Assembly: GCA_051294905.1 (NCBI GenBank)
Contig: CM119371.1
Coordinates: 11,038,001 to 11,102,000, forward strand
Direction of reading: 5' to 3'
Source: Botryllus schlosseri
Lineage: Eukaryota
DNA: 64,000 nucleotides
The notes under the pieces are model-generated. The model was not told the DNA's origin and made no database searches. It saw only the letters and a program-made list of their open reading frames with translations. Below, one piece after another: positions 16,698 to 58,578 of this stretch. Both the position numbers and the translations under genes were made by a program. Each line of letters opens with the position of its first letter. Position 1 is the stretch's first letter.

Positions 16698-16947
16698 TTA
16701 ACTGCTCCCGTAAAGTACGTTTTCCTTCATGACACTGTCTCTGCCATCACCAGTCACAGGAAGATCTGCAAACGTGTACGTCATATCCGATTGGTGTGCT
16801 ATCTCCTGATTCGTGACTTTTTTGGCGGTTGTAGAAGTACCGCCTTTTTTATTGCTTGGAGCGTCATCTGTCACTGCCGCGTATGTACCTTCCACATCAC
16901 AAAGAGCGAATCCTTTGTCTTCGGGGATAATTCTTTGTCTCCTTCTT
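16698..16947 (-). CDS. Receptor gene A, last exon (cytoplasmic tail with Tyr motifs)
   Basis: Acceptor acattttcag; phase 2 matches the TM exon. Reads RRRQRIIPEDKGFALCDVEGTYAAVTDDAPS...SDMTYTFADLP...VMKENVLYGSS*. Clear paralog at 57822-58071. Confidence 0.85.
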
Positions 16948-17493
16948 CTGAAAATGTACGTCATAGTTCGGTACTGTTACAATCGGGGCTCGCCAACTCA
17001 TAGCGGGTCGCGAGCCGCTTTTCAAATATTCTAGAGGCCGCGGGCCACATGAATTCAATATCGAGCTTTTAAACTGCAGCATATTTTTAAAACTGCACGT
17101 CAGCACAGTGCAGTGCTTCCTCTCTCTCTCTCTCTCCCGCTCTCTGATATTGGCAAAAACCATAGTTTACACAAAAGAAATATTATTTTACTAAATGAAT
17201 ACAAATACAACAAACATATCATGATCATCACTTTCATTCGATCTTGAGCTAGGAGCTGCGCGCGATAGTAGGGGTTCTTAAAGTATGGGACTCTACCCGA
17301 ACATGGATCGCGAAGGGTATCATTTTGGGTCGCGACTGCACTATATGGCTTGGTCATGAAAATGTGCTGACCTTTTAAACACAAACTGATGTGAATTCAT
17401 GATAAGATTTGTCCAACATTGGATTCTCTGAAAACCACCGTCGGTGGCCACTGGGGTGCGTTAGTGCAATGGTGTGCATTGTGCAACGAGCGT

Positions 17494-17587
17494 TTGTTTT
17501 GTTTGTTTTATTCACAACCGAACTCGAACCAGCAACCATTGGTGTCGTGACTGCAGTGTTTAACCAACTGCGCCACTCGCTTCCCCA
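17494..17587 (-). mobile_element. Minimal tRNA-derived SINE (head plus (AAAC)n tail)
   Basis: Reverse complement GGGGAAGCGAGTGGCGCAGTTGG...GGTTCGAGTTCGG..AATAAAACAAAC, perfect 12-bp TSD TGCAACGAGCGT. Confidence 0.85.
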
Positions 17588-17839
17588 TGCAACGAGCGTG
17601 TGCGGAACTATGAGACACAGTTATTGGGTGACCAGCCCCTTCCGCGCCGGGACATATGAAGACATGAAGTTTTAGCCAACATATATGGCTGGACAAAATG
17701 ACGGCCATTGGTGGCCGAAACCTTCAACCCTGATCTGTCCGGCCGTCGGCCTTCTCTTTAATGTGTCAATATTGGGTCGCGAGATGCCAATAAAACTCAG
17801 GTTTGGGTCGCAGTGTAAAAAGTTTATAAAACAATAAAA

Positions 17840-18926
17840 TAGGGTTGCCATACGTCCGGAATTTCCAGGACATGTCCAGAATTTCACCGTTCAAACTACG
17901 TCCGGGAGGAAATTTCAAAATATGCCTAAATGTCCAGAATTTTGAAGGCTTGATATAAGATCAAAATTATTTTGTAAATCAACATAAACGATTTTATTTT
18001 TGGGCAGATTTATGTCACTTGAGTGCTACGCGCGAGTTGGTGTTACATTCAATGATTTTAATATGTGAACCACCAACCCCGTAAAATATGCAATCGTAAA
18101 TATGTAAAAATAACCATCATTTAGTGATACGAGTCTAATTTTGATCGCAATTATAGAAGAACATCATATTCCTAGAGTCGGTTCAGGTTATTTATATGCT
18201 GTAGTCAAAGTCAGTGGCTCTAAATCAGGAGGTCGTTTGATTTTATTCGGGGGTTCCCAAAGATGTTGAACGTAATCAGCTTATCAAATTGTGAGCTGAG
18301 CCGCAGAACATCTTTAACCTATAGAAATGGAGTCGCGACCATTAAAGGTTAAAGACCACCATATGTGAAACCTGCTGGTGCGGACGGGCATTTAGGCTCC
18401 GAAATAGTGTTATCCGTGTGACATGACATGACTTTACGATGTATATTTACGTTCCCTGCATTTTCGACGTAATTTATTCTTCCCCAGCTCTACCGCTAAC
18501 TATGATCATGTCGGCGGAGAGGATAAAGGTTTTATAGTATTATATGGAAGAACCAATATTATAGACAGATTTCATTCACAAAATTCATACATAGAATAGA
18601 TGCATAGAATCCAGATGTTTATAGTACGTCCTCCAGAATGTGCACCGATTACCCTATGATGGGCTCAAGATCAGTGTTTATTTGGACGGGAGGGGGCTGA
18701 AAAAATGTATTTTCGGTCCTGGTTACAACAAACAACCACATAAATTAACCGACCGAACATTATAGCGGATCATGATCCGGATTGTGACCACCTCTGGTCG
18801 ATAGGCAAAGCTTTGTTAGTATGACGTACTTTTAGCAGACGACAATTTGGCATACCTCATCTTAAAATCCGCTTGTGGGGGCTAAAGAGTACTCGGAATG
18901 GACTCAACAAAATTATGGCAACCTTA
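17840..18926. mobile_element. hAT-type MITE, TAGGGTTGCCA family
   Basis: TIR tagggttgccata / tatggcaacctta, gtccgga repeats. Internal sequence is collinear with 36886-40449. Nested inside other Charlie-like MITEs spanning ~16984-19283. Confidence 0.8.
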
Positions 18927-19697
18927 GACTAGCTAGACTAAGAAATCGATGTTGCTGGAAAACTATCTTCTCCAAAGGCTTGATCCTGTGTTGAAGCCCT
19001 AGGTCGTTTTCTAAGCGTCGTGGTCTTGTCAGTGTATGGGCAATTGCAAGTCCAAGCCACGTGCCAATTCATATCAGCTAATTTTTCCTCCACTATCGCA
19101 GAGCCCTATAGTCTAATGAGGGATAGCGATGTTGGGCACAGAGGAATAGCTTACTTTGAACAAGAACAATGATCTTTTTAAACTGAAATAAATTTCAGCA
19201 TTTCAAGACGATTTAGGCTTTCTTTCGAAATTTCAAATCAGGTTGTGGGCCGCAAAATATGATCTCGCGTGCTCGTGACCCTGGTTTAAATCATACAGGC
19301 ATAGCCCTATGTTAAACCAGCGAATCTGATATGGCACCTTTGCCTCTCGTAATTTTCAGCGGTGACATTGTGACGGGTGATGACATCTTATGCTCGCTGA
19401 CGAACTGACGACATTGTAGCATAAAAATTGCCCGAGCTCCGTCTTTGCCAATTATTCGTGAACTTTTTTTTAACGTGGATGTATATATATATAACATGGC
19501 GATACGTCAGCATAAAACAAATCAGGATATAAGTATAAATTAAACACATATCTTATAAATTGGAAAAATGTAATTTTATAATATGCTGTTGTAGTTTAAA
19601 CGATGACTTTTCATAGACCCCTTGAAACTTGTCTCATAAATTCACCTCATAAATTGGAAGTGCATAGCAAAAACCGATTCGCACGAATTGTAATGAC

Positions 19698-20589
19698 TAG
19701 GGTGATTTTTTACCTAAAAAAATGGAAATTGTGACCTGAAAAATCAAAGTTTTGACATTTTTTGACCTGAACATACTGAATTTTGACCAAATATCGACAT
19801 AACGTCTGCAAATTAGGTGTTTTCCCACATCATGGTAAAATTTTACCACTTATCTTCATTTCTGGTTATAACTGGCTGTCCTGACGAAGTAGTTTGTTCT
19901 CAAAAAACGTTTTGGCTTAAAAACAGGCAAATTGATACATAAAAAACGAATATGTTAACGAAATCTGGCCCTATGAAGAATTCTAGTAGTTAAGTTACTA
20001 TACGTATTATGGTAGAAATAATTAAAATTCGTTGTAGTACAACGTGAAATAGTTTCCTACATTGTTGGGTAGAAAGTTCATATCCTTACTAAGAAGCTTG
20101 CCAAGAATGGAGAAAGAACGTTCAACAGCAGCAGTTGTTGGCTGCTAACACTCAAGTGGCGCGCACACTGCTGGTGACAAACCGTGTTGCTTCATTCGCA
20201 CAATTTTTCATTATGCGCTTCTAAGTATAATAATGATGCAATGCCCAAGAACTCTTTTTTCAGTTAGGATATTGCAGTACGTTGACCATATCACCATGTC
20301 CACCTATTTGTTTTAATGGACTATTTATGATTCACAATGAGCTGAAAATCGGCCATTTACAACTGTAAGGCCTATAAAGTCGGCTACAAGCTGTAAAATA
20401 TCAAATGATAACTTCACCGATAGTGCCAAATCTACGATACATACGAAATGCAGGCGTCAAAAAGAATTTGACTTTATGAACAATTTTGACAAATTTTAAC
20501 TTTGTGAACAATCTTGACAAATTTTCCCCAAACACTACAATTTTGACAAAATTTTAACAATTTTTAACATATCAAAATAAATCGCCCTA
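19698..20589. mobile_element. hAT-type MITE (TAGGGTGATTT) with ttttgac repeats
   Basis: TIR tagggtgattt / aaatcgcccta, imperfect TSD gtaatgac / gtagtgat. Confidence 0.7.
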
Positions 20590-21201
20590 GTAGTGATTCT
20601 TCGTCACTTGACCACTTCCCACATTCATAGCTGACCTTATTCAGATGCTTATTTTTGCAACCCATGTAAGAGAACATTTTTATTTTGGTAAGTTCACAAT
20701 AACATTGGTATTTTGGTTCGTCGTTCACGGCTCGGGTTGCGAACCGTGTCTTGCATGAAGAGTGGTCGATTTATTTTGTCCCAATCTGATTGTAATACCC
20801 ATTATTTGATGATGCTCCCTAGGAAGCTACTTCAAAGGTCTCGATTAAGACCGAGAAAGTTCGAGAACCCGACGTGTGTGTCCAAACTGTCCATGCAGTT
20901 AAATCTCCAGGATATTTTAGAGACCTGTGGCTGCAATAAATCACTAGAAATACTCCGGCGTAGCAATCTAGACTGTGCCTCAGGTTTAGTAGGGCTGTTG
21001 GATATCATTTTTCAATGTTATCATCGTCATAATATACAGTGTAAACCCTTCATCTTTGGCGATAGACCCTCAATACTGTCATATTATCGTTTACATTTTG
21101 CATATATGCTCGAAAATATTTTGAGGATATGAGGATATTGTTTGATGAAAAGCATTTCATTAGAGAACTTATTGAGCTTTATACAAGTTTTATTCATTTA
21201 C

Positions 21202-21301
21202 CTCGTGTACAGCATGACCATGGCCGCCAATAAAATAAGCGCAACAAGTATACAAGTAACGATCGCTACAACAACTCCCGTGCTGTGCAGTGATGAAGCA
21301 C
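21202..21301 (-). CDS. Receptor gene A, transmembrane exon
   Basis: ttttccag|...|gtaaat, 100 nt, phase 1/2. Reads (G)ASSLHSTGVVVAIVTCILVALILLAAMVMLYT(R). Confidence 0.87.
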
Positions 21302-21420
21302 CTGGAAAATTTAATAAGTATTGTCTCAAATATTGTAATTGGGTAATGTGGGTATCCTAAAACGCTTGGTGATGGTGATTGCTAAATCCCCTCGAATCAG
21401 TGTTGAAAGTGAGAATCTAC

Positions 21421-24317
21421 TAGGGATGTTGTGAACGTGATGTTTACGTTTGCGTTCTGTGGGTGAACCTCGCAAATTTAGAGGTTCTCTTTCACAAACG
21501 AGCCTTGGTAGGCTCTGCACTGTGAACCGTTTTCATATATTACAATTTTCAGTTCATTGTAACATATTTGGTTCAAATTTATAGCGTTTTAACTGCGGGC
21601 CACTATTTGCATGGCGCTGGCATCATAACAAATCAACACTAAACGAGCAGGCACCCTGACAATCTCCAAAATTTCACTTGCTTTGTTACAAAAGTTGGCT
21701 CGAATATCCATGTACGCTCTTAGGTGAGCTCGACTCACAATCAAAAAACATAAAAATAGAAATACACTACATGTAGGTAGTCAGCGAATGATGCTTATTC
21801 GACCAATCAATGAAATTGATATCGTTTTATGATGTAAAAAATCTAGCAGGCGTGCGGGTTCATCTTGATTTCATACGTTCATTGTACCTTAAAAACCAAA
21901 TCCGCGCAATTGGGTTGTTGGCTACTGCTGTATCACATGATAACGGGGTATTATCGATAGCAAGTATAGAAACCCGTTTTACACTCTGCTCAGTGTAAAC
22001 GTAGCAATACTTGGACGCCGAATATATTGTCCGGTCTGGCCTAGACAGTTAAGACGTACGCTTATATTCCCTTGTAAGTCCTCGTCGAAATCGTTGGCAA
22101 AGAGGCCGAAGATATTTATTTTATGGGATTATTATATCATTCGATTGCTCTAGTTGATACAGTTGGTGACGTTTAGAACGTCAATATCTAATTCAGCATT
22201 GTGGCATTATGTGACCCGAGTCGTCGCTAGGTATCGTGTACATCAGAAGGCACAAACACGCGGCCCGCGACAGAATTTTGAAATTTTAAGTATTCAACAA
22301 TATATTCAAGTGCCATATATACTTTTTAGATATAGACCTTAAAGTTCACTCTAAAACTACAATAAAAACCAATGAAATATTCACAAACTTCACCATCACA
22401 TCACTTTTAAAAGCTACTATGCGGTAGAAAATCAGCTATTACGTCAGATTTCTAGTTCATGATGATAAAACATGACCCTCTTATGATTCGTGACTGAAAA
22501 TTGCGATTTGGTTTGGTGCGACCTTCTAGTAAAATTACTGAGGTTGACTGGGTGACTAAATAAAAATGACTCGAAGTGAGTCGGGTCAAACGTTAAAATC
22601 AGAGAAGGACTCGCGACTCGAAACGGTGACTTGGTAATCCCACTGATGCAGCAATCTATTTAACTGTCATGTGGAATAGTAATATATCAAAAGGTCATAG
22701 CTTGCCTTGCATAGGTTGTATAGCTATCTAATCAGGTCAATATTGCAACCCTTGGCATTCTATGACCCCCGTGAAATATAGTTGGTTAGATGCTGGGTAT
22801 TGTTTGTTCTCTTTATCCATGTTATTATCTGTGGCGAGCAAGATAGTAGTATGCTCTACAGCTGTAACACCAATGAATTATTTGCCGATTGGACATTTCT
22901 ATTCCTGGGATTCTTAACCAGGGTCCGTTGATCCCATCGGGGTACGAAGCACCATGGCACATCAGGGTTTTAGCACGCTTTGGCACGCTACCTGAGTATG
23001 GACTATACGCCGCGTTCCCTCTAGGGTCCGCAACAGAGAGTCGGCGGATACGTTGGCCAGCACTTTATTGCACGACAGAAAACATCAACGGACTAACGGT
23101 AAAACATCCGATAAAATAACAGCGTTGGTCGTACAGCGTCGGTCGATCGTCAGGTAAAAAGTCAGCACCACTTGTCAGGTAAAAGGGCCGTAACAGTCGT
23201 CAGGTATAAAGGCGGTGGCACTTGTCAGGTAAAAAGCCAGCATGCATGCAACGAAGGTCTTCGTTAAATAGGCGAAAACCAGACACAATGATCAGCAATG
23301 ATTGTTTATTGGATGATCCGGCGTCGAGAGGGTATGTGTGGTACACCAATCCGCCATGGGGTGTACTAGATGCATCGTGGAATTAGCCCAATAAGCTGTG
23401 GAATATTTTATTGGCCAATTCTTTCAACTGGAAAATAGTCTTCGCGCTACGCACGATTTTATGTGAATGAGCATTCTGATTTTAATATAGGTACCATTAG
23501 AAATTGTGTTGAAAATGTACAGGGGGTACGAGACATCTCATTGGAAGCACAAGGGGTACGATAGCTAAAAAGGTTAAGAAGCAATGCTTTTACTATGGCT
23601 CAATAATTATTATCTTTAAGTTGTTATTGATATGTTCCAATATTAATCGAAGGAAAAATCTAACGCTTATTTAATTTGAATTTGGCAATGACAGTGACAA
23701 TAGCCTACACTTATCACGACTATATCAAAACCAGAATAAGGCCACACCGCTCAAATGCTCTGATATCAGATGAATCTTGATTCGATTTTAAAATATTCTG
23801 CATAAAATTGTGGCACGTCAAAGGTCCACTAGCTGCAACATTATAACCCGACAGTTTTACTATGTCATGATGCATCCTCTCGCATTATGTCTATCACTCT
23901 AATTAATTTTTTTTCAATATGCCCGGCGGCCCAAAAAGAATTTTATTCAAATATTTGAAAATGTGATTTTTTTTTCGTGTCAAGCGTGAACAATACAATA
24001 GTTAATTACATTTCCACGGCGTTTGTGGAATGCCTGTCTGCAAGGTCCCGTAAAAAATTCCTACTTGAAAATTATACATTGAATATTCCTATTACTGATG
24101 CTGCGGCCCGCGGCAGCATAAAAAACGAGGGAATTAGCCCGCTAGCAGATTTGAGTTTGAGACCTCTGGTGTGCATTAATACAGGAAATGTAGGGTTGGA
24201 ATGAGTAATATGACGCCACGTGACGTCATGAGGTTCACGTTCGCGTTCACACAGAACCTTTCAAAAAGATTCGCGTTCACACGAACCTGAACCTTTCAGA
24301 GGTTCACACCATCCCTA
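21421..24317. mobile_element. TAGGGATG-family MITE interrupted by nested elements
   Basis: Both ends match 882-1442; no clean TSD. Confidence 0.8.
22244..24168. mobile_element. CAGAGGTCTC-family hAT MITE, older copy with inner MITE but no LINE
   Basis: Collinear with 32587-36535, TSD gtgtacat / gtgtgcat. Shows the empty site cacatcagggt at ~22958. Confidence 0.85.
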
Positions 24318-24885
24318 CTAAATACTCTACACGGCTTTCTGCCACGTGTTTATTGTATGTCATACATCTTTGTTGCAATACAAAGTATGCATGATGAGAA
24401 ATCATGATTTCACAAAGCATTCGATAATACATAATTTTCGATTGGGATTACAATTACTATGTTGGCATTTTTCAAATGTAGTCGATGGACCCATGTTTGC
24501 TAACTCTAACGCGCTCCAAGCAAGCCCTTCTATTTCACACAAATTTTTACAGTTAACCGTCATATACAATTTTATATATTCATATTTAAATATTATATTT
24601 ATTCCATATAAAAGATTTGTCGACTTGTACTACTTAAATATTCTTGAATCATTCCACTGCAACATTTTGGGCCTGAGCTACTGAATGTTAAAATATTCCT
24701 ATTTTGTCAAGTATATATATATTCATCATTGTCTAGAATTATCTGTCTTCCTCTCAGTGAAGTCAGCGAGTAATATGATGAATTCAAGGAATGTTCATCA
24801 CAGATGCTACCAAAGCATCATGTATTCGCATATCGAACAGGCAAATGCACATTAAAAACAGTAAACCATAACAACCATCACGCAC

Positions 24886-24984
24886 CTCCTTCGGTTGAAA
24901 GTATTGCGGACGACGACGGCATAGTGGTTGTTACTGTAGACTCAGGTGTAGAATCTGATACAGAAGTCATGATGCTGCTTTGTT
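24886..24984 (-). CDS. Receptor gene A, S/T-rich stalk exon
   Basis: ttttttag|...|gtgcgt, 99 nt, phase 1/1. Reads (E)QSSIMTSVSDSTPESTVTTTMPSSSAILSTEG. Confidence 0.82.
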
Positions 24985-25329
24985 CTAAAAAATCGTATAT
25001 TATACTTAAGAAGATGACAAAATATTGTAACAGGCTACATTAGTCTGGAATTTTTGTAAATGGAAGTAGCTATGTCTAAAGTTGACGCTTACGACATTCG
25101 ATATACGATCTACACACGCGCTCATAAGAAAGCTATAAAAACGGTGGAAGAACTGCTGTAATGCCGCGACTCTTCGACTAATATTTGACAACAACTCAAA
25201 ACCAGCCTTCAATTTGTGAGATAGCAGTCCCTTCAGTATATCATATCTCATATATCAAAGGTATAAGGGAAAAACCGATATGGACATTTGCGATAAGTTG
25301 AATATGTGCTGTGAAACTTTCCAAAAGTA

Positions 25330-26659
25330 GGAGAGACCGGGAACAACACGAAGCAAATGTAATAATCGCCCTCACCGCTAGTATGATGGAGAAATCACCT
25401 TCATATTCTGAGTCCACATGCGGCAGTTGTCTCCTAACATACCTAAAGTTACGTTAAGCTACGACGCGAAACCCAAGAATAATTAAAAAAAAATAAAAAT
25501 TTTGCACAATTGAGTAAATATTTTCAGGTCTGGAATAATTTTTTCAGAAGAATAATACCTCAGATGGCGACAACGTAGCTGGAACAATGCTACCATAGTC
25601 TAGCGTGATGATAGGAAAACTAGGAATTGCATCGCAGGGAAGGTACCATACTGAGACCCTAATCATGGTCGAGCGTGTCAGGGGCAATTTTAACACTCTG
25701 ATACTTTTGCCCCGTTACAATATCTTTTCAATGCTAAATATCTGTATTCATATGTTGGTATAACCATTTATCTACTGCAGATGAATCTTGTAACAGCAAG
25801 AAGTTCAATACCAGAACAGACACTATCTTGTCATTTCAATTTTAACATGATCCTCCGTAGGAACGGCCATACAGAAGTGGTGATGTGAATCATAGGGTTC
25901 GGTTATTTCCATGATTCTAACACCTTTTCTCATGCTGATCGACTTTTTGTGCATCGATCTTCAAAGGTCACTTAAGAACTTGGCCATGACTGAATGCTCA
26001 TTCCCTAACTTGGAGCATGCCCCATTTAAATTTTGACATTTGGTGTTCACAGTTTACTTTAATTTTAATTTAATTTTACTACGCTATCACCATCATTCAA
26101 CCAAGATATTTTAGCCAGGTCGGTTTCGCACCTTCGCATGTGACCCAATGCCTAACCCATTATGCACGCTGAACTACAGCACCTTGGTAGAAGAGACCGG
26201 ATGTGTGTAGGGAAATGATGGCATGAATGTGTTTCTTGTACACTTTTGATCTCATGCAAAAGGCACGACGGGTGATACTTTATTCGTATGCCAAAAATGC
26301 GATGGCGCGTAGCCTGAAAGCGCACAAATTTCTCGTTTTAAATTTAATGCAATAATACAATTTGTGTTCCCGTTTTTGTTGTTCATTTCGTTTGTTTTTA
26401 TTCATAAATAATCCTGTTATTATTGCCACACATGGGCATTAAAATTGCCCCTGGGTACAGGGCGATTGTAACATTTTCGAGACGATTTTCGCGATCAAAA
26501 ATTTTTATGATTGACTGTTGACTGAGTTCCATTTTTGTTTTTCTATCCACTATCGATTTGTTGGCTTCTTTATATAAAACTTTGAAAATAAAATATTCCC
26601 GTGAAAAACACGTAATTCTACGAAATACAAAAAGTGTTAGAATTGCCCCCGGTGTCCCC
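25330..26659. mobile_element. Non-autonomous DNA transposon with TA TSD (Tc1/mariner/pogo-like)
   Basis: TA-ggagagaccggg ... cccggtgtcccc-TA, internal ggggcaa / ttgcccc repeats. Confidence 0.65.
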
Positions 26660-26809
26660 TACAAAACATCAATAAATATGTAAACTAAGCGATTGTTCCG
26701 ACCATTTCTTCGCTGGCCAGATCGGCCAAGAAAACTCCCTAATAAGAGTATAGTTGAGACTGATTGAGCCTCACATTGCTAGAAAGAACCTCAGTAATTT
26801 ATCACATAC

Positions 26810-26872
26810 CGAAATTTACTGTGCTTTGGTCCGTCGCCGTTGTCTCTGTGGATGTGGACTCGAACGTTGAAA
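26810..26872 (-). CDS. Receptor gene A, S/T-rich stalk exon
   Basis: tgtctttcag|...|gtatgt, 63 nt, phase 1/1. Reads (V)STFESTSTETTATDQSTVNF. Confidence 0.8.
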
Positions 26873-39412: not shown

Positions 39413-40004
39413 GTTTAGTCAAAGACAGTTGATCTAAACATATGTCGATGGTTTTTCTTTATTATGGGGGTAAGCGGGGGGTGGTTGCAAAGATATTAGT
39501 TGTCATCTGCTTCCCAAATAAGCCGTGAGGAAGTCTGGGCCCTTTTTTAATATTCCATTTTTTGAGCTTTTCAAATTGGAAATGAGCTTGCGGCCATAAA
39601 TGGTGGAAACCACCGGGTGTGCAATCTACTGGTGTATTTTATAGAAATAGATGGAAGAACCAAAAATTGACAGAATTTATTCACAAATCTTGACAAGCAG
39701 ATGCATATAGAAAGCCCGCAAGAAGTTGCATCGATTAGCTCTTGGTGGGCCCGAGATTGGTGATTTTCTTGGGCGGAAGGGGCTGAAACAATGTTTTTGC
39801 GACCTGTTCACAACACGCAACCAGATAACCACACCGATCGAACAGTATAGCAGGGCTGTCAAACACACAAACGGCGGACCGGATAAGGTCCACCTGACGA
39901 TCTCATCCGGCCCGTGAACTAATCTGTTGCAGACCCATGCGATCATCAGAGCTCAACATTAGAGACCCCCAATTCCAAACCCATCTTCCACTCCACTCGT
40001 GTAT

Positions 40005-43980: not shown

Positions 43981-44546
43981 AGGGACGGGCAACATACCAC
44001 AGGCGGAGGGATTTTCATCGGCCCGATGACAGTTTCTATCCTGAAAGTTGAATTCTATTCTGGAAGTAGTGACCGATATTATGAGGAACAGATAGGGCTG
44101 AGCATAATCGATTAAGCCAGCCTGAGTGATTCGATTCTGAATGACGTAACACGCTTCGAGTCGAGAATGAATCGAAGTTTGCCAACCTGAGAAAGATTGA
44201 CGTGGACATGAAACTACTTGCTCTGTTCGGGTCTACATAATCATTTTCGGCCATGAACATTGAACATTAACGAGACAAGGCTGCGTTCCAAAATAACTGA
44301 TGTTCACGTTCAGTCTTTGAGGGTTTCTAGATACGACATGCAGCCAGAGTTCAAATAACTCGGTGACGACTTGGGCCGACCGCAAATGTTTGATTGACAT
44401 CAACAACTATTGGTAATAAATTCCTTAAATACTGTTTTTGGTCTCTATGCTTCAAACTTAAATGCATATATTCTTTAATATCCGGCCCTTCAAGTACTTC
44501 ATTTTTCCGTATCCGGCTCGCCGACCGGAGAAGTTAACCGCCCCTG
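43981..44546. mobile_element. Degenerate Charlie-like MITE
   Basis: Ends agggacgggcaacata / gttaaccgcccctg, similar to 31378-32485. Confidence 0.6.
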
Positions 44547-44576
44547 AAATATGCGATCAAACATGATATTGCGAAG

Positions 44577-45574
44577 TTGGGATGGTGCGAACCCCTGAAA
44601 GGTTGGTTCTGAAAGCGAACGGGAGCTATTGCTAATCACAACTCTATATTTGCGTAAAGTTATGTGTTACTGAACATGAAACCTACTGACGACTCATACC
44701 GAATTATGCCACAATGGACATGCTCAATTTTTAACGTCACCTAATGTATCAACTGGAGCAGTAAACAATAATACCACAAAATCAATATTTTCCGTGGCTA
44801 TGCCAACAATTTTGACAAAGATTCGGCTACACAGGACAGGCGTATTCTTATCAGTGAAACGTCGGTTCCTATACTAGCGTCATATATTATCTCAAGAACA
44901 AGTTAGCCCACGCTGCAATCGGGTGGATATGGTTTTCGTGATACTGTAAGAGTTTTTTGGAGGTGCAGAACTTCACTATACAATTGAATAGTACTCATGT
45001 TGAAATGAACCCGAATATTTTCGGCTGACACTGGTCAGGGATAGTCTTCAGTAACTTTCCAATTCTCTACTCTTTGCTGACGATTACCCTTAACAAGTGT
45101 CATCCGAAAATATTCGGGTTCATTCCAATGTGAATATTTTTTTACATAAGACATCGATCCAGTCTTTATATCAATTTCGTGGATATAAATAACTGATTGG
45201 TTGACTATAATCACAACTCGCTGAATTACTACCAGTAGTATGTTTCGTTCTTGGTAATGTGTGATTGCGGGCAAAGCTCAAAGCGGTGAGTCACTGAATA
45301 TTCACAAACGGAAAGCTGAATACTTCGCGCAAACTTTCGCGCAAAATTGGGAAGGTATATGCTCGTTTATTGCTGAATTTCTTTTCATGCTGCAAGCGTC
45401 GGATAGTGGTCCGAATGCAAAGACGTGCAACAAATACGTTAAAATGTCGTAAAAAATTGTAATAATACATGGAAAAGGTTCACTCTGCAAAGGTTCGTTA
45501 TGAACGAGAACCTCCAAATTTCCTAGGCTCACATACAGACCGCGAACGTGATTCCCACGTTCACGCCATGCCTA
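44577..45574. mobile_element. TAGGGATG-family MITE, reverse orientation
   Basis: Reverse complement of the 882 / 21421 / 29156 family, imperfect TSD ttgcgaag / ttccgaat. Confidence 0.75.
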
Positions 45575-48432: not shown

Positions 48433-48947
48433 TAGGGCTGGGCAAAATCGAGTACCTGAGTGATTCGATTCTGAATCACGTATTATGCTTCGAGTCGAGT
48501 CGAGTATTCGAGTATCACTCATTATGACGTCAAAGCAAAATGTAGTATGTCAAAGTTCAAATATGTACCATTTTGTGCCACCACAAAGAATATAATGCCT
48601 GTTATCCATCACATTGAAGATACTTCGGTATTTCTCCGACCCTACCGCTTTCATTGCACTTTGCAACAATGTTGTGGGATGGTCAGGACTTCAGAAATGT
48701 TTTTCCTGTAACGGTCGTAGCGTTGTACTATATGTTTCGTATGCTGCAATACGGCCAATCAAGGTTCCAAGGCTTTTACTGTGGAAAATAGTATCAAAAC
48801 CATAATTCTCGTTGATAAAATAACTTTCAGTTGCGAGGAACGTAATATTTGAGTACTCGAAAAAATCGTTTTTTGCTACTCGACTCGAATCATTAAAATA
48901 ATTACTCGATTCAGATTCGAGTACTCGAATCATTGTGCCCAGCCCTA
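48433..48947. mobile_element. hAT-type MITE (TAGGGCTGGGCA)
   Basis: TIR tagggctgggca / tgcccagcccta, perfect TSD TCCGCTTA. Confidence 0.92.
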
Positions 48948-49622
48948 TCCGCTTATATAGCCTGACATGTTAGCGTGGGTTGTAGCTAGAATCAGCAATT
49001 CAGCCGAAACAGCAATTCCCCTGTCCAACCGTTGGTTAATTTTCAAAACTGAATTTCGTTAATAATATTGGTAATTGCATTATACTACTATTCAATTATA
49101 ACCTCTCTGAGCACCGAGTGTCAGATTTACCTGTAAAGCTGGGGCACGTAATTCATATTCATAGCATCTGGTATGTTGTTATAATTACTGTATGTTGTTA
49201 ATTCGCGACCTCCAGTCCGTTGTATAATCAAAAGATATTGTACTCGCCCAAACGTAGCAGACTAAAAGAATATCTTTTGTGAGACGGACACACAATTTGT
49301 CATGGCTTTATTCCTTTGTGGATGCGCCGGGTGACATTTGCATTGTGGGCCCAGATTGGAAGGACAGGAGTTATTAGTCACGCCCACCAAGCGCGGCTAT
49401 TGGCAATGGACGAATACCCTAAGTTTTGGCCAAGGTATTTCTTTGGTATCACATCCCGTGGAGTTGCGTGTTGGCCGAAACTGCATATGACTTTTGGTGT
49501 GTTGTGGGATCGTGACGCGGTAATGACCGGCTCCGAAATGCCTGTTCCCATAATATATAGCCTATGTATGTTTTTTCTTGAGGGAAAGAGGTATGCATTT
49601 CAAACCCAGCTATCTACTGGAG

Positions 49623-50564
49623 CAGGGGTCACCAACTGTTTTGAAACAAAAAGCTACTTCTTGTGTAGTGTGTACTGATTATTGCGACGACCGACGGGTT
49701 ACCACATACTCCCGTCGTTTATCCATGTTCAGTTGGATCTCTTCACTTAGAGTAAGACAATCAGAGAACTGGGCCGGGTTTCCGCCTCTTACCAAGAAAA
49801 AAAAAACGCTCACTCGCAGGGACTCACACCAGCTCCTCCAAGCTCAGTTGCGTTGCTGCAGTGCGCGCAGAAGCGCCAATCCCCGAGTCTAGACTCGGGA
49901 ATATTAACTATAGATTCCCATTGAGCCGCCGCGTGGGCGAAGACAAGCAATGCCCCGAGCGACTGCGTTCGTATGTTCCTTGGCGTCGGGCGACCCATGT
50001 TCAACTGCTGCTCATATGAAACGAGCTTCAACTTTCAAATTTCTCATTGGATATTTGTAACAGCGCAGTGGTGGCCATACGAACGGGGGGGGGGGGGGAG
50101 GCTGGGCGAGACTTACCGGGGCCCCCTATAAGTATATATCCGTAACTTATGGGGGGCTTCGCCCCCAAGACCTCCCTTTCGCATCTGTTATTATTATCTA
50201 TCTATCAAGGTTTGGCGAGGTGCTGAAGTCGGCCATGTCTATTTTTTCATGTGTGCAAGGATAGACTACATTAAAACTAAGTAATCTACCGCATGCAGAG
50301 ACGTGATGATTATCGGAATTCGGGACTTTTCAAACAGAAGCAGAGATTTGATGATGTTTGACCCATCTGTACGGAATCCTATTCTTGCTTTACACGGATT
50401 TCCATGTTTATTCGGTATTGTCCTTGAAAAAAGCGCATAATCCAAATAGGGGAGCCCTTCGACCAGCCCCCCCCCCCCGGCGACCACCCACCTCGCCCAC
50501 CCCAAAAGCCACCACTACTACAGCGACCGCGGGCGACTCATTTGGTCCGCGTTGGTGACCCCTG
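49623..50564. mobile_element. Charlie-like MITE with a nested G-rich MITE (~50066-50517)
   Basis: TIR caggggtcaccaac / gttggtgacccctg, TSD tactggag / tactagag. Confidence 0.88.
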
Positions 50565-52084
50565 TACTAGAGACATTTGAACTGCAAAGCTCGAAAAACA
50601 TTTTCAAGAATAAATTAAATTCTCGAAAATACTCTATAATATATGTTGGTTTACGAAATACTTTTGAGTCCCCTTCGAGCACGCTCCCCACTCTATTAAG
50701 GAATTTGGGGTGCGGCAGGTAATGACCTGGCAGTAATGCGAATCGTTGGATGCGATAAATCATCCACTATAAAGTTGGGCAATTGATATATTATGACGTA
50801 ATAAGCTAATGACGCATGATGTATGAAGAAAGTTGATATCTCATTAAGCCATCGCAATCCTTGTATTGTCTTCCCATATATCATTTAAGATTATAGTCCT
50901 AAGCAAAACAAATGTAATCGTGAGTAATCGTGATTACTTTTTCAATGTAATCGTAATCGTAATCGACTACTTCCTGATTTTGCTGTAATCGTAATCGCAA
51001 TCGCAATCGATTACATTCATAAAGTAATCACCCCATGTCTGACCCGTAGTCTTATGATTGATTGGTTTGAAAACTGAATATTGCATGATAATGAACATCC
51101 ATGGTGATTGGTGAGCGTTGGTGATGATTTCAAATTGAATGCGCCTTGAATGACGTAACCATATAATCATATAACTCTTTTTAGTGCATAAAAATCGATT
51201 TTAGCTACCGTATTCTACACATATATAACCAACTTGTATAATGCCCTCTATTGCCCTCAGTACCCCCCAATTGCCGTTTTGTAGGTAGCGCCCCCTTCGA
51301 GATCGCAAATTACATCAGGCGGGCGTTGCCGCCCACTTTGAGAAGAGCTGGCCTAAACAGAGACGTGCTTGAAATGATGATATATATTTTTAGTAAGTAT
51401 TGTAGCTTCCTAAGCATTAAATCGACCAGCAGTGGTCAACCTGCCGCCGTCCATGAATAACTCGTGTGTATTTCGATAAACATGTGTAGGCGGACTTCAA
51501 GATACATTTCGACTGTATGAATCGTCCCGTAAGTCGGTATGTAGAATAAAAAGCATAACCACAGATGAAGTTAGTCATTCCTTGAAAATTTGACCGTCCT
51601 TCGACCGACATTATTTCAGGAATTCAGCAACTGCCGAATCGCTACCTATTATCAAACTCATACACATTACATCTCCTCGTCCTTGGAATCGATTGAAGAG
51701 GTTCGCGATCAAAAAAATTTCATAACGGCGGATCGAAATCCTATATACTAGATGTCATAAGTTGTAGGCCTACTTGGCAAAAGGATACTCAAATCCGAGT
51801 CGGCTATCAATAGTACGATACGACGTACTAATTCACCACCAATCGTCATCCGACTCATCCCTAATAATAATTGGCGCTGATTGTGCGCGACCCTGTCACC
51901 AACTGCCTATTTTAAAGAAGATTACCGTTTGATGCGTGCCGCCGATCCAGCGACGCTGTATGTCAGTGATCTTTTACCGAAGAACGAGTGATGCTGCTAC
52001 GCTATTTATGATTCCATTGCCTTACGTTAGAACTGCCAATGGGTTCTGTTGATGAATAAAGTTTATACCGACTTATTGCCGACT

Positions 52085-53031
52085 CTTTATTGTTGATCCT
52101 AGAGCAGGGGTTCAAATCATACGGCCCACAGGTCGCATCCGCCGCGCCAGGCAATTTCTTCCAGCACGCGAAGCTATGCTGAGTAGATTGAAAATTTATT
52201 ACATTATCCAACACGTTTGTGACAATTTGAAATATTTCCATTAAATAATCCCTCAAGTCAGCAATCTCGAACATGTTCATTGTTCATATAGGCCACATTA
52301 AAACCACCCGGCTGAAACGTTCTTGTTTCGCTCTAGTTCACTAGGAACAAGTCCGTGATACAGACACTCAATTTTGAGAAGTCAAAAATGTGCACACTGA
52401 GCTCATAGTTTTATGGAAAAATGGGCCGAAAATTAGTTATTAAGAAAAGCGAAAACGCCAATGCAGAACTGTTATATCCAGTTTACATGCAGATTATAGC
52501 CTAGTATTTACACCAATTATAATTCAAAAGGGTATATTCGCACTGCTGTGTCAGCTCCGACTCAAAAGGTCTCCGGACGCCGAAGGAACCTGAATCGCGA
52601 TTTATTATTAATAAAGCAAATCCCAACGTCCGTGTTTACAGTTGAATCTCTATATTCCTTACATTACATGCACAACATGCACACATGCTAGACTAAATCA
52701 GAGAGAGCATAGAAATATGCCAACTTATATCGTCGTTAGCACCACTGTTCGAATGTTCATAACTGTATTCAACCGGCCAATCATCTTATTTTAGTCAGCA
52801 ATTCCGATCTTCGCAAATAATGGCGTTGCTAATACTTGCTGGAATAAAACCCCTACGATCTGTGATAGAATTTAATATACTATTATCTATATATGCCTAT
52901 TGCCTAATAATAAGGTTAGGTGAAAAATAAGGGCATGAGGTAACAATTTTTATTCAGTTGACTAGTCCGGCACGCGAGCGAGTTGAAGGTTCGAATCCGG
53001 CCCGCGACGCAATTTGAGTTAGAAATTCCTG
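52085..53031. mobile_element. Degenerate Charlie-like MITE
   Basis: Ends caggggttcaaa...cggccc / cggcccgcg...gagttagaaattcctg; TSD not clear. Confidence 0.55.
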
Positions 53032-53301
53032 CCCAAGTGGGAACGTGACATCTCGCATTTGACAGACGAACCTGAGCGCCATAATAGGTATGAATATTAT
53101 TAGTCTACTGCTGAACGCCGTTGTGTAATGTCGATGTGTCGGTCGTAACCTCGTAACTCAGTGTTCAAAGAAAGTTACGCCGGGCAACAAAAGTTGCCTG
53201 AAGTGTCATACCTGTATTTCTGTATTCATATCTGTATTTGATCGAACCGCATCATCGTATTTGTCATGACCAAGACACGAAAACTAATACAACGATGTCA
53301 G

Positions 53302-55015
53302 CAATGTTCCCCCTAATTTTTCATGAGTCTGCGCAAACACGTCAACTTACTGCGCAGGCCCATGAACAACAGTGCGCAACCAGGCCCCTATATGGTGATA
53401 ACCCGATCTTCTGGGGGCTTCGCCCCCCCAGACCCCCCTCGGCACCTACCTTTTTTGCCGCAACCTATCATCTACATTGGGTGTCCTTTAGTGGGTGTGT
53501 AGCCTAGACGCGCGAAAATTTTATATAATTCATGATTGAATCGGTCAATATGATCGGGAATTACATATATATTGCTATTAATACTTATCCTCTCTCTGCT
53601 CACGTAATCAGATTTACCGGTAGAGCTGATCGAGTGAAGTGTGTTCGAAAAGGTAGGACCCCTAAATAATAATCAAACATCTTCGGGCGTACCCTTTGGT
53701 ATAAGGACTTCGTGTCCTCCTATCTGCTGTGTCAGAAGATATTGAAATTACCCAAACGTACTAAACTAAGACGTACACGGTTTCAAATTGTCATTTCTTC
53801 TTTGAAAAAGTTGCATCAATTTCCAAAAAAATACTCCATGATTCATGTTTATTCACGAAATAATTTTGGCTTCCCTTTGAGATCGGGTCCCCCAATTGCG
53901 GGGTTTGGGGTGCAGCAGTTAGGGTCCTGTGCGTAACCCAGACGTGCGTGCATCCATTCGAGTCACATGATTCATTGATAGAATCAAAGTACAGCATTAA
54001 CATTTAGTTTTATTGCATGACACCAGATAATCACATTATGAGTGAAGAAGGGGAACTACGCTCTAAACATGATGTGGTCTCGACTTGAAGTTAAGCCATT
54101 GAGGACATTTATTTTCAGAAAGCCACCGCGTTTAAATATTTTCGAGTATGCACCATAACACACGTGCGACTCTGTGGTGTCGCAAAGGGTTAAGAAGCAT
54201 TCACGCGCAATGGCGATAAACCTCGACCTCATGGATATCCCACTTGTGCTTTGGTGCATATTTTGAGGGTGATTTGGCTTCAGTGCGAGTGCGGTGGCTT
54301 TCCGAAGAAAATGTATCCTATTCTTTTCCATATTTTGCTTCTAGACATATTTTGCAGAGCAGACCTTACATTGTTTTCTTCCGTTTTCACATGCTCCGAC
54401 AACCATTTCATGTTAAACGAATCGCACTTATTTGTTAATTTGGCTTGCATATTATCCTATGTCACCATACGTGATCAGATCCGCCTGATGGAGGCGATGA
54501 CTTCGAAAATTCACGGCATGTAATTGTACAGTAAATCTTACGCAATGTTCATGCCACGCGGAAAAGACTATTCGTTAGTTTCTCGCAGATTAACCTTGAG
54601 CTAGCCCATTGTTATTTATAACTTTGTTAAACCATGTTATATCGCCATTCCCAGAAAAGATTGCGCAATTGAAATGAAATCAGTATCGCTCACGTGTACG
54701 AGACCATACTAAAAGAAAAATCTCGTTCGTGAGGCGCACGTGATTGCAGATTCTCAATTCTTCACGGAGCGCAATATCTACCTTTGCGGGCAGCACTTGT
54801 ACTTCGGCTTCAGACTTCAGCGATAGCACTATTTTCCCCTGGCTATATTCCCTATAATTTTTCTGCGCGCCTGCGCGGTCCCTTTGACAACAGTGCGCAA
54901 CGACTGAAAAAAAATTATCACTTCGGATTTTTTGTGCGCAGCCTAGATTTTCTGGGCGCAGAGACCGTTTCAGCACTGCGCATTTGCGCACGTGCGCAGC
55001 TTAGAGGGAACATTG
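53302..55015. mobile_element. hAT-type element with TGCGCA repeats
   Basis: TIR caatgttccc / gggaacattg, perfect TSD GATGTCAG. Confidence 0.92.
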
Positions 55016-55225
55016 GATGTCAGTATGGTATTATTATTCTTATTGTCACTATAAAAATACAAACCAAACTGGAAATTTCGTGAGTAAGTATAAATTCATA
55101 TTAATACTGGAGGGAAATGCCACGCCAATTTGCAAGCGCGTGCGACTATATGGCAAGAAATTTTATTTTTAGTTGAATATGATACTTTTGGACGATTTCA
55201 ATTACTTATGCCTAGTGCGATATTT

Positions 55226-55293
55226 GACTCGAACTCGAACCCGCACCCATTGGTGTTGCAGCCGCGGATTATACCACTGCGCTATCTCGCCAC
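55226..55293 (-). mobile_element. SINE family 1 head
   Basis: Reverse complement gtggcgagatagcgcagtggtataatccgcggctgcaacaccaatgggtgcgggttcgagttcg is nearly identical to 43-105. Confidence 0.85.
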
Positions 55294-55919
55294 ACAAAAA
55301 ACAGCATATGTCTAGTCTACATGCACTTAGTCAAGCATTCAAGGAATAGGTCACTAGGACTTGCAGTCTTTCTTAATCAGTTGTTCGACCCAAGCAGCTA
55401 AGCTACACTACAAATATTTTTAATTTTGTCAAGTGGGAAGGAGTATTCGGTTACATTTACATCAATTTTACAACCAGACGATATGTTTGCTCTGTCACAA
55501 TAACTTGGCATAATTCCAAAAATCGCATCAATTTGTGACTGCATCACGCATATTGCTTCTTTTCTTCCTCTATGCAACTGAATTGTAATTTGCCTATATT
55601 CTCGAATTCTATTTATGTCAGGGGTGGCCAACTTTTTCGGCCAAAGGGCAACATGAGATTTACGAACCAATTGAATGTTGATAACATTTTTTTAGTCGAC
55701 CGATAGGGATGAACCGAATTAGGCAACAATGAAAACAAGACTTACATGACTTCGCTTTAAAATTGATTACAATTATGTCATGAAAACTCCGTGTGCAACT
55801 GTACAGTGTGCACTGTGCAGTCGTGCCTTGGTCCCGCGAAGTACAAAATTTTCTCAAAGGTAATGAATGAATTCGATCAATAAATATATATATTACTTGC
55901 ATATATTGAGGGTATAGCC

Positions 55920-56629
55920 CAGGGGTGGCCAACCTTTTTGGCCAAAGGGCCACATTCAATTGACGAACCAGCGCGCGGGCGACTAGCTGCGCTCAGCGCG
56001 AACATTTTTTCAAAGTGATTAAGGTAAATAACATTGTTACTTGAGTATATTGCGGGTCTGCTGTATATCGCTTGGCTAAGTTCGCAAGGATTTGACTATT
56101 CGGCCCCTGGACATATCGATATCGAAAGCTTCGGTCAACATGTGTCAATCATTTTGTGCCTATTGGTTTCGTCGTCGACGGTGTTTCTGCGAGCGCAAAC
56201 GTACGATCGCATGTTGGACGACATTTTCTCTCGTAATTGCAAATATAGTTACACTCTATCTGGTACCTAGGCTCCTCCTCGCCCCCTCATCCGCGTCAGC
56301 GGTGTCTTACAAAAAGCCTAGAGGTGGGCCGTGCTATAAGTCGGCAGTTACAGAAAAATAAGAAGAATATCGGCCTGGTGTAAATGACCATAGTAGTCGA
56401 CAAACACCATGAATACCCCACAAACACACAAACAAACAAACTCGATCTGGTAAATTATGCGTTCTTTCATTTCCAGGGAGGGGGTGGAACAATATATTAG
56501 AAGCAAGAAATCGAGTGACATCATATTACAGGAAGAAAATTTTCACTTTGGATAAATCTACCGCAGGATATTCTCAAAATCATTTCGCGGGCCGAATGTG
56601 GCCCGCGGGCCACGGGTTGGCCGGCCCTG
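55920..56629. mobile_element. Charlie-like MITE carrying a SINE insertion
   Basis: TIR caggggtggccaacc / ggttggccggccctg; inverted sister copy at 56781-57360. Confidence 0.85.
56266..56440 (+). mobile_element. 5'-truncated SINE family 1 copy
   Basis: Body and tail match 155-317, TSD ctctatctggta / ctcgatctggta. The empty site is visible in the sister MITE at ~57020-57032. Confidence 0.9.
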
Positions 56630-56780
56630 ACCTAAAGCTACCATTTTGACAAAATTTTGGATTATTTTGACATGTCGAAAATTGCCCCACCTATGACTAT
56701 ATAGGCTACGAGCGGTCGTGAAATACCAACATGGAGCAGATTAACGTACCAGTACCGACAAAATATGTATAATTATACGG

Positions 56781-57360
56781 CAGGGCCGGCCAACCCGTGG
56801 CCCGCGAGAAAGTTTTGAGCGGCCCGCTAGGTAATTTCCGAAATTGGTAATATGATCAAAAATGGATTGCACAGATTTTTTACTACAATAAAGCAGAATA
56901 ACTTGGAATGGATTTACCAAAAGTAAAAATTTTCTACACGCTTCGCGCAACATGTTGTCACTTGATTTCTTGCTTTTAATATTGTTAGCCGTTTGTGAAA
57001 ATGAAAGAACGCCTAATGTATCAGATTGAGTCTACTATATTCGCAATTACGAGACAAAGTGTCGTGCAACATATGCGACTTTGCGTTTGCGCTCGCAGAA
57101 AGACTGTCGACTATTAATCCTAGGCACAAAATGATTGACGCATGTTGATCGAAGCTTTCGAAATTGATATGTCCAGGTGCCGAAAAGTTCAGTCCTTGCA
57201 AACTGAGCCCAGCGATATACAACAGGTCCGCAATATAGTCAAGTGACAATATTATTGAGCTATGAACTTCGAAAAATTTTCTCACTTTGCGTGGCTAGTG
57301 ACCCGCGCAATATTTGGTCAATCGCATGTAGCCATTTGGCGAAAAAGTTGACCACCCCTG
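56781..57360. mobile_element. Charlie-like MITE, inverted sister copy
   Basis: TIR cagggccggccaac / gttgaccacccctg, TSD ttatacgg / ttgtacgg. Confidence 0.85.
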
Positions 57361-57821
57361 TTGTACGGGCATTCGATTTTCGCAGTAGAAACCGCTCTAC
57401 AGGTAAATCTGATAAATTGGACTGAGAGAGGATGAACAAATATAGCAGTATATGTCAATAACAACTACACAGTTAAAATGCAATGCTGAATTGGGTATTA
57501 TTTTCGCGCAAAACAAGTAAACACTGACCCAACAAGGTTAGAACATCCTTTTCTAGTAGTAGTGAGTGTTGTGCTGACAAAGTACTGCTGATTGATGATA
57601 ATTATTTTTTTAACCAGCCTGGTCATAACATTCATTGGATTCTATGATATACGCCCGGCCTTGATTTCGCGATTTTCAGTGTGAAGTAACCATAGGAATG
57701 ATGATTCTCAATATTAAAATAATTCATTTTAGTACTCATAAAACCAAGATGGATGTCCTTACAGTGGAGTAACTCAATGTAAAGCCGCCTGAGTTCCTAT
57801 TGATAATGTTTTTATTTTGAT

Positions 57822-58071
57822 TTACTGATGTCCGTATAATATGTTTTCCTTCATGACAGTGCCATTAGCACGATTCGCCAATGGCTCGTCTGCTAAGGAG
57901 TACGCACTATCCGACGGACACGGATTTGCGTCATCTGTCACGTCAGCGAATAAATACGCATCGTTTTTTCGTTCAATAGGCGCATCATCCGTCACTTCCG
58001 CGTACGTTGCATGTTCTTCGTGCAGTGGATTTTGTCTGCTTTCTTGGATGACTCGGTTCTGACTACTTTTT
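57822..58071 (-). CDS. Receptor gene B, last exon (cytoplasmic tail with Tyr motifs)
   Basis: Acceptor atttttcag, phase 2, 250 nt to the stop like gene A. Reads KSSQNRVIQE...HATYAEVTDDAP...DAYLFADVTDDA...DSAYSLADEP...VMKENILYGHQ*. Confidence 0.85.
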
Positions 58072-58481
58072 CTGAAAAATACGCGAAAGGTACCTCCTTC
58101 ATACATTCATTTGACATTTTCACGTTGTTTTGAAGCTCAATAGTCGAATCAGATTCATTCATTCGGAGCACTCCTTAATATCATCTGTATCAATCAAAGC
58201 TTCTTAGCGAATACCATTAATGTCATCCCACATTCATACGTGCATTTTAATAGTAGCTCGGTTACAGCAATCAAGGAGAATTTAAATTTAGTATACAAAA
58301 ATAATTGGTACTGATTTTTAGTGTAGCATGGACGTGTTTTCCTGAGGATATAAAATATTTGTGTGGTGTTGAAGGATTTCAAATTGCCAACTTTCGAGAT
58401 CCATCGATGCATATATATCAGGGAGAAAAGATATGTAATGAAACATTTTCTAGAATATCAACTACTACAAATTATACTTAC

Positions 58482-58578
58482 TTTTTAAACACCATGACAG
58501 CAGCTGCCACTAACAACAGAGTCGCGGCTAGAACACATGCAACTATAACTCCTGAACTAAGCGGCGATGCGTCGAGAT
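58482..58578 (-). CDS. Receptor gene B, transmembrane exon
   Basis: tttttccag|...|gtaagt, 97 nt, phase 1/2. Reads (D)LDASPLSSGVIVACVLAATLLLVAAAVMVFK(K). Confidence 0.87.

Follow-up and report, generated by a model that had tools for sequence, protein, structure and literature searches.

A tandem family of unannotated single-pass membrane proteins with a shared membrane-anchor and tyrosine-tail cassette in Botryllus schlosseri

Lineage-specific receptor expansions are common in animal genomes. The Alr genes of Hydractinia and the fester and FuHC genes of Botryllus form tandem clusters of single-pass receptors with birth-and-death dynamics and fast-evolving ectodomains. Among signalling tails, the immunoreceptor tyrosine-based inhibitory, switch and activation motifs (ITIM, ITSM and ITAM) are defined by textbook consensus strings, and the engulfment receptors CED-1, Draper and MEGF10 combine an NPxY site for the phosphotyrosine-binding (PTB) adaptor CED-6/GULP with YxxL and a Cys-rich ectodomain. 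In integrin beta tails a membrane-proximal NPxY is read by talin F3, and in beta3 Tyr759 lies four residues from the end of the chain. One report describes NPLY747 of the beta3 tail as binding talin F3, and the C-terminal NITY759 with a T/S cluster as binding the PTB-like F3 of kindlin-2, with Tyr-to-Phe replacement tolerated (PMC2364684). Here we analysed 64,000 nt of Botryllus schlosseri DNA (the window; contig CM119371.1, hereafter C1, positions 11,038,001-11,102,000 within a 495.5-Mb assembly). The window contains three members of a real, unannotated, tandemly arrayed and lineage-restricted family of single-pass membrane proteins that can be placed in no named family: genes A and B are intact-looking in a two-exon cassette, and gene Z is decayed. 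The membrane-anchor exon and the tyrosine-bearing tail appear to be all that members have in common.

An earlier note on this DNA had proposed a hidden tandem family from two minus-strand open reading frames (ORFs) sharing three Tyr blocks, and both ORFs and all three blocks are present exactly where it placed them. The last exon of gene A (16698..16947, minus strand, 250 nt including the stop, phase-2 acceptor; ORF 16698-16976) encodes an 82-residue acidic tail with TYAAV (TYAAVTDDAP), SDMTYTFAD and a C-terminal MKENVLYGSS. The last exon of gene B (57822..58071, minus strand, 250 nt including the stop, phase 2; ORF 57822-58106) likewise encodes 82 residues, with TYAEV (TYAEVTDDAP), DAYLFAD, SDSAYSLAD and a C-terminal MKENILYGHQ. 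Each tail exon is preceded by a transmembrane (TM) exon of phase 1 to 2, so that the architecture claimed for the pair is indeed shared. The TM exon of gene A (21202..21301, minus strand, 100 nt, donor GTAAAT) matches those of two genes elsewhere in the genome, L003 and L005 (L labels denote such loci or stretches), and that of gene B (58482..58578, minus strand, 97 nt, donor GTAAGT) joins its tail in frame. The acceptors before the two TM exons are nearly identical, and the remainder of gene B is located outside the window, past its end. All five junctions put forward for the two genes (28405>26872, 26810>24984, 24886>21301, 21202>16947 and 58482>58071) are GT..AG with a pyrimidine tract. A six-frame motif scan found the tail blocks shared by A and B at no other site in the window, and the similarity of the two tails exceeds chance. 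A strict TM-helix scan of the window returned three minus-strand segments against one on the plus strand; all three minus-strand segments are family TM exons, each with a donor of GTRAGT type and each upstream of a tail exon.

The third of these segments belongs to gene Z. Its TM-helix exon (11200..11301, minus strand) ends at a GTGAGT donor; use of the acceptor at 11301 would place an in-frame TGA ahead of the helix. Its decayed last exon (3474..3665, minus strand) belongs to the L007 subfamily, as traced by DNA-level alignment with the L007-type last exon (genome match E 0.18). Comparison with L007 and L010 shows that this exon carries an additional base directly behind the acceptor and a deletion of 15 nt, that a TGA interrupts its frame, and that the KENILYG end is missing. 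Gene Z thus looks like a pseudogene.

The earlier note had called for a genome-wide translated search with the tails, which we ran in six frames over the whole assembly with single tails as queries. Tail A found tail B at E 4.5e-8 and nine other places, with 10 of the 11 places on C1, while an L007-type tail found 34 places. The union of tail queries on C1 comprises 19 places, spread from 10.84 to 13.11 Mb, of which 15 reach E <=0.01. Strand orientation is uniform at either end: minus for every place as far as 11.46 Mb, plus for every place from 12.77 Mb onwards. The tail of gene B is 73% identical to that of the next gene, L005, at C1:11119440. The proposed tandem family is real, its cassette recurring at 19 or more places on C1 and being selectively maintained.

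Further copies accompany this array. At C1:13086109-13086312 (plus strand) there is an additional tail exon whose ORF is truncated and ends ...IMKENII. The L009 tail, on the same strand, follows 21.8 kb downstream, which suggests that the distal cluster consists of head-to-tail genes of <=22 kb. On contigs C17, C18, C21, C33 and C45 we observed ten partial tail copies with identical scores, spanning residues 1-61 of 85 and carrying one TGA each (for example C33:17415, 75705 and 136899, and C45:22785 and 81074), at a spacing of about 58-61 kb. These seem to represent a pseudogenised family member that forms part of a large repeat unit, tandem or segmental, present on several contigs.

Ten genomic tails were analysed in detail. 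Their last exons, all with a phase-2 acceptor, are 250 nt long in six cases, 238 nt in one and 259 nt in three. TM exons ending in ..LY[KR] before a phase-2 GTAAGT donor were found 0.4-5 kb upstream of the tails of B, L005, L003, L004, L009, L007 and L010; gene A has the same TM-tail arrangement but a GTAAAT donor. Between distant members, the 300 nt of intron and 3' flank beside the tail exon are unalignable (39-54% identity).

To place these tails among known proteins, we compared a profile of all ten with 1.84 billion representative proteins, obtaining nine matches at E <=0.001. Six of them (P0001-P0006, E 5e-28 to 4e-10) are ORFs of 55-119 residues that correspond to last exons read from genomic DNA; each comes from one unannotated assembly contig of 1.1-1.7 kb from other samples, and all stop two residues after YG. 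Their nearest subfamilies, with percent identity, are A for P0002 (61%), L011 for P0001 (72%; L009 71%), L003 for P0003 (64%) and P0004 (48%), L005 for P0006 (58%) and L007 for P0005 (46%). These six ORFs and the ten genomic tails make up the 16-tail set used below. The other three matches (P0007-P0009; 616-2508 aa, matched in 4-14 stretches) were discarded as repeat or low-complexity matches; of these, P0009 alone was inspected and proved to be a repetitive protein of secreted type, without relation to the tails. Tail A had no match in the ESM Atlas, and PDB sequence searches returned nothing. The strings ENILYG, ENVLYG, ENIIYG, TYAEVTDD and TYAAVTDD were absent from the literature searched, in which the sole match to KENILY was unrelated. 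The earlier note had been unable to assign a named family, and our Pfam, PDB sequence and protein-collection searches returned none either.

Five columns are invariant in the ten genomic tails (A60, E75, N76, Y79 and G80). Over the 16 tails, the universal part shrinks to the C-terminal N-x-x-Y-G, as the Glu is replaced in P0005 (KDN). The C-terminal NxxY, which the earlier note had read as a PTB-type motif, occurs in 16/16 tails and is followed by G-x-x-stop; the strict NPxY form occurs in 1/16. Eight tails (L004, L005, L007, L009, L010, L011, P0001 and P0005) carry a second, membrane-proximal NxxY, and this membrane-proximal KENxLYE.D block is degenerate in A and B. The YxxPhi motif of the TYA.V block (YA[AEV]V) is found in 6/16 tails (A, B, L005, L003, P0002 and P0004) and is absent from the L004, L007 and L009 subfamilies. 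In L003, L009, L011, P0003 and P0004 another residue takes the place of the middle-block Tyr, and the [ST][FL]A[DEQ] that follows is kept. The reading of YxxV cores as SH2-binding sites in the note therefore does not extend to the family, as the core is confined to these six tails and the middle Tyr is not conserved. Its remark that the motifs misfit the canonical ITIM and ITSM did hold: regular-expression searches found the ITIM consensus [S/I/V/L]-x-Y-x-x-[I/V/L] in 0/16 tails and the ITSM consensus T-x-Y-x-x-[V/I] in 0/16, the Thr being at -1 and not at -2. ITAM (Y-x-x-[L/I]-x(6-12)-Y-x-x-[L/I]) and hemITAM (an acidic stretch followed by YxxL) also occur in 0/16 tails each. As the C-terminal NxxYG-x-x-stop is the sole universal motif, docking of a PTB or FERM-F3 type is favoured over SH2 docking. 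A reading of KENILY as a KEN-box degron was rejected, since its Lys and Glu are not invariant (TEN in L004 and P0004, KDN in P0005).

The tails are under purifying selection. In three independent close pairs, the ratio of non-synonymous to synonymous rates (dN/dS, Nei-Gojobori) is 0.43 (B-L005), 0.22 (L009-L011) and 0.17 (L007-L010). Pooled tail differences comprise 40 non-synonymous and 33 synonymous changes against a neutral expectation of 79% non-synonymous (binomial p = 4e-6); these counts are small, and their direction is the same in all five close comparisons.

For gene B, we located two ectodomain exons beyond the window: exon X (L016:8649-8760, 112 nt, phase 1 to 2) and exon Y (L016:4131-4282, 152 nt with a 149-nt variant among paralogues, phase 2 to 1). 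Together they form an 88-codon phase 1-1 module with eight Cys that is phase-compatible with phase-1 stalk and TM exons. Both the module and its splice sites are conserved in three paralogues, namely B, L005 and a further copy at 11.187 Mb (copy C; C1:11186929-11188097, intron about 0.8 kb), and all eight Cys are present in 3/3. A weak tail-like match (E 0.2; C1:11169402-11169587) lies 17.5 kb downstream of copy C, and no KENILYG-type motif was found within C1 11170001-11200000. The module dN/dS is 1.01 (B-L005), 1.00 (L005-C) and 0.56 (B-C), compared with 0.43 for the B-L005 tail. A value of about 1 may reflect diversification over an unchanged disulphide scaffold, or else relaxed constraint on the L005 copy. 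Searched one by one, exons X and Y had no Pfam match at E up to 1 and no PDB sequence match, and exon Y had no match in the ESM Atlas or among longer proteins. An AlphaFold2 model of exon Y alone from a three-row alignment was poor (mean predicted local distance difference test score 55.7). The Cys spacing may resemble that of the SUEL/rhamnose-binding lectins (Pfam Gal_Lectin), which we treat as a lead and not as a result.

Hidden Markov models of X and Y matched nothing in the window, including upstream of A, or in the L003, L004, L007, L009 and L010 regions; because of this, the ectodomain joined to the common cassette appears to differ from one subfamily to the next. Other ORFs shared between paralogue loci, beyond the TM and tail exons and exons X and Y of B, L005 and copy C, were rejected as ectodomain exons, as their multi-frame similarity marks them as repeats or recent duplications. 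We also ran Pfam-A on 502 ORFs from the window and 40 kb beyond: 121 window ORFs of at least 75 aa on both strands, 247 minus-strand ORFs of 40-74 aa from 17.5-64 kb, 127 ORFs of L016-L019 and 7 chosen exons. Only transposable element (TE) domains and sub-threshold noise were obtained, with no Ig, EGF, LRR, lectin or CUB domain. A syndecan match (PF01034) to the TM exon of A was dismissed, being at E 0.26 and 11.7 bits against a cut-off of 25.2; moreover, the tails here end in YG-x-x and not in EFYA.

Upstream of its TM exon, gene A had been credited with two Ser/Thr-rich stalk exons and a Cys-rich exon, and all five exons proposed for the gene do join as one open frame. The two stalk exons (24886..24984, 99 nt, and 26810..26872, 63 nt; both minus strand, phase 1-1, GT..AG, with an open frame) are plausible candidates. 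Across eight family loci, Ser/Thr-rich phase 1-1 candidate exons numbered 10 in sense against 1 in antisense orientation, several of them overlapping. The L005 and L007 genes, too, have such candidates ahead of their TM exons, and so stalk exons do not set gene A apart as the note had supposed. The supposed Cys-rich exon (28405..28636, minus strand) is unsupported as an exon. It has a good donor and is an open frame, but it lacks a good acceptor and a Pfam family, its upstream end overlaps a repeat from about 28609, and no RNA reads cover it. A paralogue search with it returned itself and three matches at E >0.17, each with TGA stops, and no related ORF of near length was found in the protein collection.

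The best explanation of these observations, and one to which we would give about an even chance, is a 2.3-Mb birth-and-death cluster with a conserved TM-tail cassette whose tail acts as an NxxY docking platform. The cluster would encode type I single-pass proteins that share the cassette, which selection keeps. The first cassette exon provides the TM helix (phase 1 to 2, with ..LY[KR] followed by a GTAAGT donor). The second is the last exon and, in 238-259 nt, encodes an acidic and probably disordered tail of about 80 residues that always ends in [KT][ED]N[IV][ILM]YG-x-x-stop, with [ST][FL]A[DEQ] and subfamily motifs (KENxLYE.D and/or TYA.V) upstream. The extracellular parts appear to differ by subfamily: an eight-Cys, 88-codon module followed by Ser/Thr-rich stalks in B, and stalk candidates only in A. 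We infer that the invariant C-terminal NxxY, with its Tyr four residues from the end, would be read by an adaptor of PTB or FERM-F3 type. The variable Tyr motifs may add phosphotyrosine (SH2) or AP-2 (YxxPhi) inputs, and the ectodomain may bind a ligand that changes quickly in evolution.

Several results weigh against this account. No annotated or spliced protein with the family tail was found in the 1.84 billion representatives or among longer proteins, and a full-length gene model exists for no family member. A signal-peptide exon scan upstream of A and, within the window, of B gave weak candidates only. The NxxY is a four-residue motif for which a reader can be suggested by analogy; hydrophobic residues at -5 are typical of Shc- or Dab-type PTB ligands, and the tail has none at that position. 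The near-neutral dN/dS of the B module could reflect relaxed constraint in L005 and not diversifying selection. A search for sequencing runs containing positions 16000-17000 gave no RNA run. For gene A, expression was assessed in four raw-read bulk RNA-seq runs of unspecified tissue, of which 6-13% each was read against positions 16201-36200. Mean RNA depth was about 0 to 0.2 on every predicted exon, bins 26206-28206 were empty in every run, and no read supported any of the four predicted junctions, which the earlier note had proposed to check by RNA-seq mapping. Nearly all aligned reads were partial, repeat-derived matches piled on a short interspersed nuclear element (SINE)-like sequence at 17522-17586. 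This result weakens the claim of an active gene A in the sampled material, without settling it.

The sequence at 17522-17586 is itself a tRNA-derived SINE-like element, although ARAGORN predicted no tRNA anywhere in the window. RNA-seq reads in their thousands match its core of ~65 nt only and differ from the sequence on either side, with two frequent variant positions at 17532 and 17552. This element is a member of an abundant transcribed repeat family.

A docking platform of this kind has its nearest functional parallel in the integrin beta tails (PMC2364684): both are short type I tails in which the Tyr of the last motif lies four residues from the C-terminus. Both also have two NxxY motifs, represented here by KENxLYE.D and KENILYG in the L004, L005, L007 and L009 subfamilies. 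There is, however, no sequence homology. The tail here is acidic and about 80 residues long, its motifs are about 58 residues apart compared with about 12 in integrins, the motif lacks Pro, and Pfam found no integrin ectodomain; the parallel is thus one of mechanism. The CED-1, Draper and MEGF10 receptors are also single-pass and likewise combine an NxxY-type PTB site with a further Tyr motif and a Cys-rich ectodomain. They differ in that here Pfam found no EGF or EMI domain, NPxY is limited to one tail, YxxL/ITAM occurs in 0/16 tails and sequence similarity is absent. Receptors with ITIM or ITSM motifs (SIRP-alpha, PECAM-1 and Siglecs) resemble the family in being single-pass proteins without an enzyme domain, with several tail Tyr residues and in multigene clusters, and TYA[AE]V resembles their xYxxV core; yet their consensus is missing from all 16 tails and no Ig-domain exons were found. 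The Alr and fester/FuHC systems share with it the tandem clustering, birth-and-death dynamics and a fast-evolving ectodomain. They are defined by Ig-like or other known ectodomains and by fusion/rejection genetics, whereas no known ectodomain family was found here.

Of the alternative explanations, similarity carried by a transposable element, or chance open frames, would fit a repeat-rich window with TE fragments in its introns, but is extremely improbable. The flanks are unalignable between distant members while the exons are conserved, which excludes a transposon carrier; intron phases are conserved, synonymous change is in excess, and the genome-wide match between A and B is far beyond chance, so that this explanation is effectively refuted. 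Another possibility, although a decidedly unlikely one, is that gene A and perhaps a large part of the cluster are silent or dying relics, whose cassette exons are still open but have ceased to belong to an expressed gene. It would account for the near absence of RNA coverage of A, for the lack of supported 5' exons or a signal peptide, and for the decayed relatives, namely Z, a TGA-bearing copy at C1:12781442 and the ten identical partial copies on other contigs. Set against this, the TM and tail exons of A are intact and phase-compatible, an A-like tail with the same end (SVMKENVLYGSS) exists at 61% identity in another sample (P0002), the tail dN/dS of other subfamilies is well below 1, and the RNA evidence comes from a small part of four runs of unspecified tissue.

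Two further alternatives concern the role of the tail. The proteins might be immune or allorecognition receptors on which SH2 phosphatases or kinases dock at phosphorylated YxxV or ITIM-like motifs. A clustered array with birth and death and a pseudogene, a B-subfamily ectodomain that evolves faster than the tail, and TYA[AE]V in A, B, L005 and L003 all agree with this; the absence of ITIM, ITSM, ITAM and hemITAM from every tail, the lack of YxxPhi in the L004, L007 and L009 subfamilies and the failure of Pfam to find an Ig, LRR, lectin or other recognition domain among the 502 ORFs make it unlikely. In endocytic signals of the FxNPxY type, Pro and an aromatic residue at -5 are the rule. It is similarly improbable that the proteins are endocytic or sorting cargo receptors or adhesion mucins, in which YxxPhi would engage AP-2 and NxxY would engage adaptors of the Dab2, ARH or Numb type without serving as phosphorylation sites, given that NPxY occurs in a single tail and YxxPhi is absent from 10/16. 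This alternative would nevertheless explain the fit of YA[AE]V to YxxPhi, the conservation of NxxY with hydrophobic residues at -1 and -2, and the mucin-like Ser/Thr-rich stalk candidates in A, L005 and L007. It also agrees with the tolerance of integrin NxxY readers for Tyr-to-Phe replacement, as described for beta3 (PMC2364684).

Other elements surround the genes. A match to U6 spliceosomal RNA at 27988-28089 (minus strand; full length, 49.6 bits against an Rfam gathering threshold of 44, E 1.8e-9) lies inside the putative gene A intron 28405-26872, has RNA depth 0 in the four runs and is possibly a U6 pseudogene. A nested, near-perfect inverted repeat at 32577-39422 has arms of 1357 nt and 663 nt at 99% and of 148 nt at 100%, contains a weak zf-RVT match (38054-38413) and in two of the runs has a modest RNA depth over 34210-34876 (about 6-9). 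The repeat is probably a TE palindrome of recent origin; a diverged third copy of the arm (82-93%) lies at 22260-24134, inside a gene A intron. The last intron of gene A contains a hAT-transposon fragment (20025-20456, minus strand, weak Dimer_Tnp_hAT match), which recurs in introns or flanks at L007, L009 and L010 with 65-85% protein identity, the L007 and L010 copies being about 91% identical in DNA. At L019:6017-7703 (minus strand; C1:11138017-11139703), upstream of the L005 gene, a GIY-YIG ORF follows an open ORF of 441 aa for a reverse transcriptase (RVT_1), a pairing of domains known from Penelope-like retroelements.

Returning to the docking-platform reading, a bolder extension would make the TM-tail cassette a portable signalling module, exon-shuffled onto mutually unrelated and quickly diversifying ectodomains over the 2.3 Mb, in an undescribed self/non-self or pathogen-recognition system of this lineage that signals through a new, invariant C-terminal NxxYG site and not through ITIM or ITAM; we regard this as quite unlikely. 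For the immune or allorecognition role suggested by the earlier note, we found nothing beyond clustering and a fast-evolving ectodomain in one subfamily, and such a role is speculation. If the genes are not expressed, they would amount to an ordinary decaying gene cluster. If they are expressed, the family would add 15-20 or more unannotated receptors to a genome already used in many single-cell RNA studies. It would also come with a compact signature, a TM exon and a phase-2 last exon ending in NxxYG-x-x-stop, by which the genes could be located and attributed to cell types and the adaptor reading the tail could be sought. In one subfamily, a constrained tail is combined with a fast-changing eight-Cys ectodomain, as would be expected of recognition receptors.

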